Source: Escherichia phage EcWhh-1. Taken from it: a stretch of 64,000 nt of DNA. The notes beneath the pieces are model-generated. The model was given only the letters and a program-made list of their open reading frames with translations, searched no databases and was not told the DNA's origin. The stretch is from sequence record MH791409.1; one strand, 5' to 3'. The translations under genes and the position numbers were made by a program. Each line of letters opens with the position of its first letter. Positions within the stretch are counted from its first letter, which is position 1. Below are positions 21,557 to 23,697 of the stretch, in pieces.

Positions 21557-21922
21557 TTAGATATCGAATTCGTTCAGAACTACATCAAAGATTGCTTCCA
21601 GGTGTTCAGGTTTAGCTCGGTTGCTCAGGATGTGACGAATCCAAGTTTTAACCAGAAGCTTACGATTAACACCGTTCCAGCAAGGGTGGGTGCCTAAATC
21701 ACGTTGACGGAAATCATCATCTAAAGCGATTTTAAAAGTAGAACCTTCCATAGTGATTGAAACCGTAATACCATTTTCAAAGCGCATATAAACGTAGTTA
21801 GGAGTCATGCACTGTTCGATTTCACACACTGTACCGTTTTCGTGTTTCCATAGGCAAATAACTTCAGAAGAACCTGGGATACCGTTAGAAACATATTTAC
21901 GTTCAAAGTTGATGTAGTTCAT
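21557..21922 (-). CDS. hypothetical protein (promoter-cassette gene)
   Basis: 121 aa with dedicated early promoter and RBS. Confidence 0.55.
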   Translation of the reverse strand: MNYINFERKYVSNGIPGSSEVICLWKHENGTVCEIEQCMTPNYVYMRFENGITVSITMEGSTFKIALDDDFRQRDLGTHPCWNGVNRKLLVKTWIRHILSNRAKPEHLEAIFDVVLNEFDI

Positions 21923-21950
21923 TTTATTCTCCAGTTTGTTTTCGTATTAT

Positions 21951-21993
21951 TTGGTACAGGTCTATAATAACACAACCTGTACCAAAGTAAAAC
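21951..21993 (-). promoter_or_regulatory. early promoter/stem-loop cassette (PeSL-like)
   Basis: TTGGTACAGG...CCTGTACCAA inverted repeat enclosing the -10; upstream region near-identical to that of the next gene. Confidence 0.55.
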
Positions 21994-21995
21994 AT

Positions 21996-22328
21996 TTATT
22001 TCACAACATTCCAATTTTTCATATCAAGTTTACCAACTTTTTTCATCTGAGCAATCAGACGTTCAGCGCGTGTACGGGCATTAACGTAATAGAATTCACC
22101 AATTTTGTTTTCTTCAATACGACCAGTAATTACAGTTTTCAGTTCATAAATCCAACCTGTAAAGAAGTTGTGAAGCTCGATGGTAAATGTGAAATCAGTA
22201 CCCATACCTTCTGTTGTTTCAACTTCGATGATATCACCTTCAACTGCAGTCAGGACCCACATGGTTTCTTGATATTCACCGTTGAAACATTTAGCTTTAA
22301 CAGATGCATTCAGGTTTACAGTTTTCAT
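21996..22328 (-). CDS. hypothetical protein (promoter-cassette gene)
   Basis: 110 aa; 5-prime leader and RBS near-identical to 21923-21960. Confidence 0.55.
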   Translation of the reverse strand: MKTVNLNASVKAKCFNGEYQETMWVLTAVEGDIIEVETTEGMGTDFTFTIELHNFFTGWIYELKTVITGRIEENKIGEFYYVNARTRAERLIAQMKKVGKLDMKNWNVVK

Positions 22329-22356
22329 TTTATTCTCCGGTTTGTTTTCGTATTAT

Positions 22357-22399
22357 TTGGTACATGTCTATAGTATCATGCCTACCGGAGATGTATACC
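22357..22399 (-). promoter_or_regulatory. early promoter/stem-loop cassette (PeSL-like)
   Basis: GGTACATGTCTATAGTATCATG core; CTCCGG/CCGGAG stem includes the RBS. Confidence 0.55.
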
Positions 22400-22426
22400 C
22401 TTTTTTAAAGATTTAGAAACAAAAAT

Positions 22427-22444
22427 GGGACTCCGAAGAGTCCC
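22427..22444 (-). terminator. hairpin GGGACTC-CGAA-GAGTCCC
   Basis: 7-bp stem, UUCG loop on the - transcript, after the small basic ORF. Confidence 0.55.
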
Positions 22445-22449
22445 ATAAC

Positions 22450-22611
22450 TTATGCAATAACTTTACCGAAGCAAGCAGCATCTGCACGCAATACTGCACG
22501 AGCACGAGCTTGAAGCTTATCAACTACCTGATTGATACGCTTGTTAGACGCACGCTTGTAACCAGCGCGTTTAGAGGTTCCGTCAACTACTTTAACTTCT
22601 TTCTTAGCCAT
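22450..22611 (-). CDS. small Lys/Arg-rich protein of unknown function
   Basis: 53-aa ORF (MAKKEVKVVDGTSKRAGYKRASNKRINQ...) not in the track; flanked by a terminator and a 350-nt ORF-free region. Confidence 0.4.
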   Translation of the reverse strand: MAKKEVKVVDGTSKRAGYKRASNKRINQVVDKLQARARAVLRADAACFGKVIA

Positions 22612-22964
22612 TTTTTAAATCTCTTAAATTAGGATGCAGGACTTATTGGCACTGCCTGCGCAAGCCCTCAAGGGGAACATAGGTTTTAGATATTTAACGA
22701 CAGGATAACCGTAAACCTCGTCATCATAGCTCTTATCTGTTGCACACCGTTAGCTTAAAGGTTCCGGGTTCGATTTCTCGAGGATAAGATATATACTGAT
22801 GGATATAGGCCTTGAGGCGTACTCCCGATTGGCCATCACCTCGGGGTAGCATGCACTTGCCGCTATAAAATACCATTCAAGAGGTACACCGTAAAACTGC
22901 CGGGGGTCTTAAAACTATAATGATTCGCAAATCATTAATCAGACAGTTCGACGGCTCCTCGATT

Positions 22965-23213
22965 TTACTTCAGGGTAATAATAAAATGACGTACTGCTTT
23001 ACGAGCTGCTGAAGCCAAAGGCTTAGCATATTTCAGTTCATCTTTTGCTTCCAATTCAGCAGCCAGAGTAGCCTGAGCAGGATTAAGATGTTTGAAATAA
23101 CGCAGGATTTCCAGTGCTTCGGCTTCAACATCAATAGATGCGCCGTAGTTTTCGTGACCGTTGTTCCAAGCGTTGCGTTGCAGTTCAAGAGCGTGATTCA
23201 GATGTTTGTTCAT
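22965..23213 (-). CDS. rIII: rIII lysis inhibition accessory protein
   Basis: from internal ATG (MNKHLNHALELQRNAWNNGHENYG...) about 82 aa, matches T4 rIII. Confidence 0.85.
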   Translation of the reverse strand: MNKHLNHALELQRNAWNNGHENYGASIDVEAEALEILRYFKHLNPAQATLAAELEAKDELKYAKPLASAARKAVRHFIITLK

Positions 23214-23373
23214 TTTAAATTCTCGATTCGAGATAAAGATTGGTGGACACGTTCTTCTGAATTTCACTTCCTTTCGGCAAGTCTCTCAGTTGTAGTCCAC
23301 CGCTTAGGATTAGCTAACCCCATACACCAGCAAAGCTCTGTATGACATTAGCCAATCCATATTATTATTTATA

Positions 23374-23697
23374 TCACTTATAAAGACACGGAATAGCTTT
23401 ATAGTGGCAGGTAACGAATTTCTGTTTAATTTCTTTAGGCTGCTTAATACCAAGTGCAACTAAAGGATGAGGCACGTTAGCAATCTTACCAACAGGAAGT
23501 GGAGTCAAATCGCCTACTTCACAAAAACCTTCAGGGACATCAGGTCCTACAGAATAAATTTCACAAAGTTCAGGGATTTCACCTTGATGAAGTTTGCCAA
23601 TAACGATACCAGATGCAGTAGTTTCTTCATCACCAGCTTGTTTTGGTTCGGAAACGAGAATAACATATTCTCCGACCGCTTTAATAGGAAGTTCCAT
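23374..23697 (-). CDS. 31: co-chaperonin gp31 (GroES-like)
   Basis: 107 aa; matches T4 gp31 ([12 protein letters not shown]...[15 protein letters not shown]). Confidence 0.92.

Follow-up and report, generated by a model that had tools for sequence, protein, structure and literature searches.

The 353-nucleotide (nt) gap between genes rIII and 30.9 of Escherichia phage EcWhh-1 (sequence record MH791409.1; the window is the whole stretch of 64,000 nt that was analysed) is probably a transcribed spacer made of conserved RNA modules, with A, C and D as presumed cis-acting parts of the message that spans rIII and 30.9 and the central module, B, as an autonomous, shuffled RNA. An earlier reading of the DNA letters by a model (hereafter the sequence-only reading) had singled out this region as an orphan containing a basic 53-amino-acid (aa) open reading frame (ORF), a UUCG hairpin and a GC-richer gap of about 350 nt closed in all frames. 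The ORF encodes exactly the protein quoted there, the hairpin follows it with 9 base pairs and a U-run, and the gap is indeed GC-rich; the orphan status and the closed frames did not survive comparison. Together the data give good support to a picture in which the ORF and its terminator are ordinary and the spacer is an array of shuffled, structured RNAs that is partly common to T4 and has a new motif at its centre.

The window belongs to a JS98-like Dhakavirus, a T-even relative of T4; over the 1.1 kb around the spacer its identity to Escherichia phage JS98 is 98%. Matches to this 1.1-kb segment were found in about 960 T4-type records, and parts of the spacer itself match 996 phage records (Tevenvirinae), so the region is no orphan. 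A T4 counterpart, which the sequence-only reading did not name, exists for both of its parts: the ORF is gp30.9, and the homologous T4 spacer of 244 nt (T4 130541-130784) matches both ends of the window spacer without its centre. To compare the lineages, 29 loci were fetched via the rIII protein and the rIII-to-30.9 stretch was aligned; across 24 loci the alignment breaks into blocks that are present, absent or re-ordered by lineage. On the RNA strand of the window the order is A, B, C, D1, D2 and then the 30.9 ribosome-binding region. T4 carries an additional 5' hairpin followed by A, C and D, with module B absent, JD18 has the order C-E-B-D1-F, and Karamvirus and EcS1 have D1-B-C. In six more distant T4-type phages (L038-L043) the long spacer is absent and most also lack 30.9. 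In L040, which belongs to this group, a 30.9-like gene follows rIII at a distance of 9 nt and has no leader. Seven loci (L016-L018, L020, L022, L027 and L029) carry a different insert of about 50 nt at the equivalent of window position ~22868, in the place of module B, and this insert holds another GGUUAUC hairpin resembling module C. The alternative insert suggests that the site between A and C is a hotspot for the exchange of small RNA modules. A mosaic of modules in genus-specific order, with module B also present at an unrelated locus, had not been foreseen.

The spacer has a GC content of 43.9%, higher than that of the window (39.3%) and of the two short spacers next to it (30-36%), and ranks within the top 7.5% of 353-nt windows. 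Its frames are not fully closed, as it contains a sense ORF of 47 aa (22733-22876) together with a few of 29-30 aa. No reading frame of the spacer is conserved in the relatives, however, and no relative has a genuine ORF at its position. In the record of Salmonella phage KM16 (NC_070779; L004 936-1289) an annotated coding sequence of 117 aa takes a GTG within the spacer as its start and continues into 30.9. This feature is an annotation artefact, a GTG extension of 30.9 that masks the non-coding RNA region; the true 30.9 start is MSKAKK. Features labelled 'hypothetical protein' are placed over the spacer in several other records too. The folding energy of the whole spacer is not exceptional (z = -0.78), neither strand being significant relative to shuffled sequence, so the evidence for structure is comparative and not thermodynamic. 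The alignment across related phages, which the sequence-only reading had proposed as a check, yielded compensatory changes in every module, and the spacer thus appears to be a chain of separately folding, conserved RNA modules. This agrees with the structured non-coding RNA that had been listed there among the candidates.

The largest module, B, is an RNA domain of about 140 nt whose predicted fold is enclosed by a closing stem, P1. P1 meets P2, P4 and P5 in a perfect four-way junction that has no linker nucleotides and from which branch a long arm (P2, an internal loop and P3), the hairpin P4 and the arm P5. The last of these opens into a three-way junction of P5, P6 and P7, in which P6 is capped by GAAA. 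Two long unpaired runs, GGCAAGKGCAUG and GCUAACRGUGUGCAAC, are invariant. Complementarity between the loop of the P3 arm and that of P4 was spotted by eye, and both arms of the corresponding kissing helix covary (UGAUGG/CCAUCA, CGAUGG/CCAUCG, CUAUGG/CCAUAG, CAAUGA/UCAUUG and UGCAUU/AAUGCA). The last variant, that of Slopekvirus and Pseudotevenvirus, is entirely different in sequence and keeps the complementarity. Two other helices considered within B, GGCC/GGCC and GAGGYG/CGCCUC, were dropped in preference to P3, which shows double compensatory changes in L046. The motif GGTTCGATT, to which the sequence-only reading had drawn attention, is present at 22767-22775 on the plus strand, but as a tRNA-like hint it lies on the wrong strand: a GGTTCGAAT-type T-arm loop would be required on the RNA strand, to which GGTTCGATT is antisense. 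It is the complement of the covarying hairpin P6 and the start of P7, and not a T-loop.

Distinct copies of module B were gathered from viral and metagenome contigs by means of an invariant 20-mer, and 21 were aligned. RNAalifold predicts 42 pairs from these sequences, 15 of them with compensatory double changes; when pairs were counted with the kissing helix included, 98.9% of the cells were paired, 17 pairs were double-changed, and none of 500 shuffles equalled the alignment. After addition of sequences from two distant genera (25 sequences in all), 30 of the 44 pairs are double-changed and 99.0% of the cells are paired, again with no shuffle among 500 as good, and controls in which the pairing was slid reach 27-39%. 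P7, formerly invariant, gains a change from C-G to U-A in this larger set. With the two distant sequences put in register, the counts are 1038 Watson-Crick pairs, 11 G·U, no A·C and 4 other pairs; the presence of G·U and absence of A·C indicate that the RNA strand of module B is the gene strand. The covariance model of the module, R1, was built without the kissing helix; this helix and the two distant genera are independent of the fitting of the alignment to the nested structure. Lengths range from 137 to 149 nt, and stops occur in essentially all six frames among the 25 sequences, from which module B is judged to be non-coding. The comparative evidence thus shows module B as a conserved RNA domain that is predicted to fold independently, with a defined tertiary contact, whatever its genomic context.

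Module B was found in 406 phage records at 407 places, that is, one copy per genome, in T4-type phages of E. coli, Shigella, Klebsiella, Enterobacter, Yersinia, Salmonella, Citrobacter and Serratia. The window copy is 90-94% identical to that of JD18 or KM16, whereas for rIII, gene 31 and 30.9 the identity as DNA is 67-77%. Its position varies: in the window and related phages of E. coli it is flanked by A and C, in Jiaodavirus it comes after C plus another small module, in Karamvirus and EcS1 it directly follows a D1 hairpin, and in Moonvirus it begins 8 nt past the rIII stop. P1 accompanies the module and differs by lineage (UAUAGC/GCUAUA, UAAAC/GUUUA, UAGUAG/CUACUA, UUAUAAGC/GCUUAUAA).

A second locus was found in Slopekvirus K41P2 and Pseudotevenvirus EC-F2, where much more divergent copies give full-length matches to R1 (87 and 81 bits). 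There the module follows uvsY, uvsY.-2 and a group of small ORFs and precedes a terminator and the convergent uvsW.1, with no gene downstream of it. KP27, RB43-like phages and other relatives carry the same spacer without B, which identifies B at the uvsY.-2 locus as an insertion; no target-site duplication was detected when filled and empty sites were compared. Module B therefore seems to behave as a cassette, present or absent at a given site and variable in its position among the other modules. In K41P2, a Klebsiella phage, the non-coding region between uvsY.-2 and uvsW.1 (L069 1080-1480) measures about 400 nt and holds B, a D1-like hairpin and further conserved sequence, and the strong terminator at its end faces both converging operons. 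The part outside B recurs in many genomes of Slopekvirus, each of which has three places matched by pieces of it.

Outside T4-type phages the module was not encountered. A blastn search of 5,426 complete E. coli genomes gave no match, a set of 185,579 species-representative genomes does not contain the invariant 20-mer, and a three-part pattern of the module gave two chance matches in the latter set, neither of them matched by R1. An origin of module B in the host, or mimicry of a host RNA, is accordingly unsupported, B not having been found in the bacterial genomes scanned. The pattern GGCAAGKGCATG...TGGCCTAT, used to look for a wider spread among phages, matched nine other viral contigs, all by chance in GC-rich coding sequence. 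Among metagenome contigs, L064 from the 20-mer scan was a chance match and L075 from a 16-mer scan had no match to the model.

The remaining modules are smaller and show the same kind of conservation. Module A, an irregular long hairpin, starts 4 nt past the rIII stop and is also found in T4; RNAalifold on 11 distinct close relatives gives 25 pairs, five with compensatory double changes. Its outer stem contains a GGAG (22955-22958, 7 nt past the rIII stop), which is the core of the recognition motif of RegB; the consensus of strong RegB sites is GGAGRAYARAA (PMC3014915), and the 3' context of this GGAG does not fit it. Module C occurs in 22 distinct versions, all with a conserved loop of 11-13 nt and conserved flanks. 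RNAalifold on 15 versions predicts 8 pairs, three of them double-changed, with UA in 8, AU in 6 and GC in 1 at alignment columns 10:32, and CG in 9 and GC in 6 at columns 11:31. A conserved loop and flanks around a covarying stem form a pattern typical of binding sites. The conserved AUGAUG of module C opens a mini-ORF of 13 codons in the window (22686-22727), its second AUG lying within the covarying stem; a leader peptide starting here was rejected, as the frame varies from 3 to 35 codons in the relatives and is broken by indels.

Module D1 is nearly invariant, with the variants CCUC..GAGG and CCC-GAAA-GGGG; several genera have it next to B, on one side or the other, and it is found at the Slopekvirus uvsY locus as well. 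The stem of D2 covaries, as GCGGG/CCUGC with a G·U pair in L028 and as a compensatory GAACUGG/CCAGUUC in L030. The sequence AAGAG (22621-22625), 10 nt past the end of D2, is the putative Shine-Dalgarno sequence of 30.9. In Klebsiella phages D2 is replaced by a larger element (a stem, UACAAC...GAAGAACGU and a second stem), and the rIII leader of the window holds the same UACAAC...GAAGAACGU inner part as the rIII-30.9 spacer of Klebsiella phage JD18. The recurrence of this element suggests that the spacers draw on a shared pool of small RNA parts.

The modules were compared with known classes of RNA. A search with Rfam 15 (4227 models, including group I/II introns, riboswitches and self-cleaving ribozymes) found nothing inside the spacer at E <= 10, and on five related loci nothing that overlapped B or the other modules; the sub-threshold matches, all outside the modules, resembled microRNAs (miRNAs) or small nucleolar RNAs (snoRNAs) in the window and snoRNAs, miRNAs, leaders or small RNAs at the related loci. 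ARAGORN found no genes for tRNA or transfer-messenger RNA in the window. The covariance and tRNA searches suggested by the sequence-only reading thus assigned the region to no family. No candidate antisense target of the invariant segment of B was found within the window. The RNAs C and D of T4 (rnaC/rnaD, species 1 and 2 RNA) are cut out of a polycistronic transcript. They resemble B in being structured phage RNAs of 119-139 nt, present once per genome, with no promoter of their own and no known function; they differ in lying at another locus and in having no homology to B, which T4 lacks. A search of T4 69500-74500, which holds its tRNA genes with rnaC and rnaD, with R1 and all filters off gave a best score of 5.2 bits (E about 1), and homology between them was rejected.

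Riboswitch aptamers such as those for cobalamin, lysine and SAM-I share with module B a P1-closed architecture of 100-150 nt, a four-way junction, a kissing or pseudoknot contact and invariant junction nucleotides. They differ in that B has no Rfam match, no constant downstream gene or expression platform, and also occurs at the end of an operon; a riboswitch would be expected in a constant position upstream of functionally coherent genes together with a platform, and B was found in two unrelated contexts. Promoter-early stem-loop (PeSL) cassettes of T4-type phages were reportedly described by Arbiol and colleagues in 2010. Like the modules described here, they are short conserved non-coding cassettes shuffled among intergenic sites of T4-type genomes, but they consist of a simple stem-loop joined to an early sigma-70-type promoter, whereas positions 22612-22964 contain no promoter-like site and B has a complex tertiary fold. 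The orphan motifs of phages reported by Weinberg and Breaker (PMC5737381, PMC10690425) are similar in that conservation and covariation serve as the evidence. On the best reading of these comparisons module B is an RNA family that is new relative to Rfam 15, the catalogue of predicted phage RNA motifs in PMC10690425 not having been compared, and a limited literature search found no publication on the rIII-30.9 spacer.

How the array would be expressed is suggested by its surroundings. No sigma-70-type or late promoter was found within the spacer, the sole promoter-like site detected in 22300-23500 lies at 22379-22352, and the sole terminator of the rIII-30.9 unit follows 30.9. The long leader that had been among the candidates of the sequence-only reading fits this arrangement, since the spacer lies on the gene strand between the two genes. 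T4 expresses rIII from promoters of the early, middle and late classes (PMC9409239), and in the window a late promoter precedes rIII (Table 1). The array is accordingly expected to be transcribed at all stages of infection, within the message that covers rIII and 30.9. A MotA box (middle promoter) or a late promoter in D1 or elsewhere in the spacer was considered and rejected, as the spacing and the -10 sequence are unfit and TATAAATA is absent from the spacer.

In the mechanism that we propose, A, C, D1 and D2 would act in cis on the rIII-30.9 transcript as barriers to RNA decay, as processing and binding sites and in the control of the 30.9 ribosome-binding region. Module B would be transcribed as a segment of polycistronic mRNA from promoters of the early, middle and late classes that precede rIII, would fold by itself into a compact tertiary structure and would then work as an independent RNA, most probably once it has been cut out at its A/U-rich flanks. 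Such excision, which these flanks and the closing stem would permit, would resemble the way in which the tRNAs of T4 and its stable RNAs C and D are cut from long transcripts. Contact with a protein or small ligand would likely be made through the two invariant unpaired runs. Module B keeps its sequence and fold at every site, even where nothing lies downstream, which points to an RNA in its own right and not to a regulator of 30.9. We also entertain, tentatively, the further possibility that B represents a new functional class of RNA with its own biochemical activity (either a new small ribozyme, or an aptamer for a ligand or protein that counters some host factor or defence system by serving as a decoy or sponge) that spreads as a cassette of about 150 nt able to work anywhere in transcripts, and that the spacers of T-even phages, including that of T4, are arrays of exchangeable RNA parts.

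Several observations weigh against this reading. The autonomy of B is deduced solely from its independence of context. At the main locus the module is always upstream of 30.9, so that a role in cis is possible there, and at the second locus it is present in just two lineages. Its absence from T4 implies that it is dispensable for the core life cycle. Many of the B sequences are close relatives, for which the shuffle control overstates significance, and their alignment (A4) had been fitted to the nested helices of the fold. Finally, the folding energy of B is no better than that of shuffled sequence (z = -0.41).

Among the alternatives, the one that stands up best is that the entire spacer, B included, is a cis-regulatory leader, riboswitch-like or operated by a protein, that governs the translation or stability of 30.9. 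The spacer immediately precedes 30.9 and shares its strand, 10 nt separate D2 from the Shine-Dalgarno sequence, and in phages of Klebsiella and Serratia and in Karamvirus a UCUCC...GGAAGA hairpin can sequester that sequence; B itself is aptamer-like in its closing stem, multi-helix junction, pseudoknot and invariant nucleotides at the junction. This interpretation is reasonable as far as modules C and D are concerned. As an account of the whole spacer it is rather unlikely: the occurrence of B at the unrelated uvsY.-2 locus, between uvsY.-2 and uvsW.1 with no gene downstream, argues against a mere 30.9 leader, the distance and order of B relative to C, D and the 30.9 start differ among genera, and 30.9 is expressed without B in T4 and many other phages, the 30.9-like gene of L040 being leaderless altogether.

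We consider it improbable that the modules are passive stability elements 3' of rIII and uvsY.-2, which would block 3'-to-5' exonucleases or scanning by RNase E. At both loci B does lie 3' of a cistron, the spacer is a string of hairpins, and such a role would explain why position matters little. A roadblock, however, needs a stable stem only, and the folding energy of B is ordinary while its unpaired nucleotides are extremely conserved (invariant 16-20-mers) and the kissing interaction is maintained. Conserved unpaired runs and a kissing helix in an RNA of ordinary folding energy point to a specific tertiary fold or a partner.

Less probable again is that B separates the messages of rIII and 30.9 as a self-cleaving ribozyme or other processing element, or that it is a selfish RNA element capable of moving. 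The compact fold of junctions plus pseudoknot, with invariant junction nucleotides, and the patchy, clean insertion at several sites would suit such an element, and T4-type phages encode enzymes for the healing and sealing of RNA ends. Against it stand the lack of any Rfam ribozyme or intron match even at the permissive threshold used, the single copy per genome, and the absence of an associated endonuclease or reverse transcriptase and of a target-site duplication. A role of the conserved sequence as DNA, in the form of a protein-binding site, an origin or a recombination hotspot, is very improbable; the shuffling of modules does imply recombination at or near these sequences, but the pairing is strand-asymmetric (11 G·U, no A·C) and the covariation maintains RNA-type helices, including the long-range helix between loops. 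That the spacer is what decay has left of a gene, or a scar from the loss of a mobile gene such as one for a homing endonuclease, functionless today, which the sequence-only reading had listed last and which the unusual length of the gap in a tightly packed genome and its 47-aa sense ORF might recommend, is hardly credible and seems already contradicted by a module B more conserved than the flanking genes, compensatory substitutions in stems, frame-breaking indels, stops in all frames and the lack of a real gene there in relatives.

A conserved, shuffled RNA array of this kind would be of some consequence, as T4 and its relatives are among the best-studied viruses and are widely used therapeutically against E. 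coli and Klebsiella. The annotated non-coding RNA repertoire of T4 and its relatives is limited to tRNAs, the RNAs C and D and three introns. A complex RNA domain present in about 400 genomes and better conserved than the adjoining proteins points to an unrecognised function in infection at the level of RNA, and its cassette-like distribution among shuffled modules suggests that phages exchange structured RNA parts much as they exchange genes. Since A, C and D are present in T4 itself, the question is directly accessible to T4 genetics.

Table 1. Features of the rIII-30.9 region in the window, with positions and the basis of each assignment.
Feature	Position	Strand	Basis
rIII-30.9 spacer, array A-B-C-D1-D2	22612..22964	-	353 nt; 996 phage records; modular alignment of 24 loci
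Module A, 80-nt irregular long hairpin; outer GAGG/CCUC, apical UAAUGAUU-UGCG-AAUCAUUA	22881..22960	-	RNAalifold
Module B, predicted RNA domain of ~140 nt	22725..22867	-	covariance model R1 match 22728-22865, 165 bits, E=2e-36
Kissing helix of B, 5' arm UGAUGG, apical loop of P3 arm	22833..22838	-	pairs with 22797-22802
Kissing helix of B, 3' arm CCAUCA, loop of hairpin P4	22797..22802	-	pairs with 22833-22838
Module C, hairpin, loop GUU-NNN-GGUUAUC, flanks UAUGAUG and GUUAAAUAUC-AAAACC	22680..22727	-	alignment and RNAalifold
Module D1, hairpin CCC(N3-6)GGG then conserved CUUG	22661..22675	-	invariant block in T4, JD18, KM16 and the window
Module D2, hairpin GCAGG/CCUGC, 14-nt loop	22636..22659	-	alignment
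Gene 30.9, 53-aa basic protein	22450..22611	-	ORF list and JS98 annotation
Intrinsic terminator after 30.9, AUGGGACUC-UUCG-GAGUCCCAU then UUUUGUUU	22425..22446	-	terminator scan
Gene rIII, upstream cistron of the same transcription unit	22965..23213	-	JS98 annotation; 100% protein match to JS98 locus
Late promoter TATAAATA, upstream of rIII	23366-23373	-	sequence scan

All genes around the spacer are encoded on the minus strand, in the order 31, rIII, 30.9, 30.8, 30.7 in JS98 and identically in T4. The 53-aa ORF shares 29 of 40 residues (73%) with T4 gp30.9 and matches the profile of PHROG 1427, a family with no assigned function, at E=6.5e-26; this match and the synteny downstream of rIII in JS98, T4, JD18 and KM16 place it in the gp30.9 family. 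Searches of Pfam gave no confident match (best DUF5773, E=0.058, 14 bits against a 25-bit cut-off), and sequence searches found no NCBIfam or PDB relative. The UUCG hairpin begins 4 nt past the 30.9 stop codon and combines 9 pairs, five of them G-C, with a 4-nt loop and a U-run, which fits an intrinsic terminator of 30.9.

Two further elements lie outside the spacer. The region between gene 31 and rIII (23214-23373) contains, besides the late promoter of Table 1, a structured rIII leader. One stem of this leader, GGUGGAC/GUCCACC, shows covariation in six genera, and the Shine-Dalgarno sequence of rIII is held in a small hairpin. Upstream of 30.7 and 30.8 there is a 55-nt direct repeat (21918-21972 and 22324-22378, 93% identical) that includes a Shine-Dalgarno sequence and a promoter-like stretch, and its two copies we take to be PeSL-like cassettes from their appearance. 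A hairpin (21951-21961/21975-21985) whose 5' arm is overlapped by the first copy is the source of the sub-threshold miRNA-like Rfam matches.

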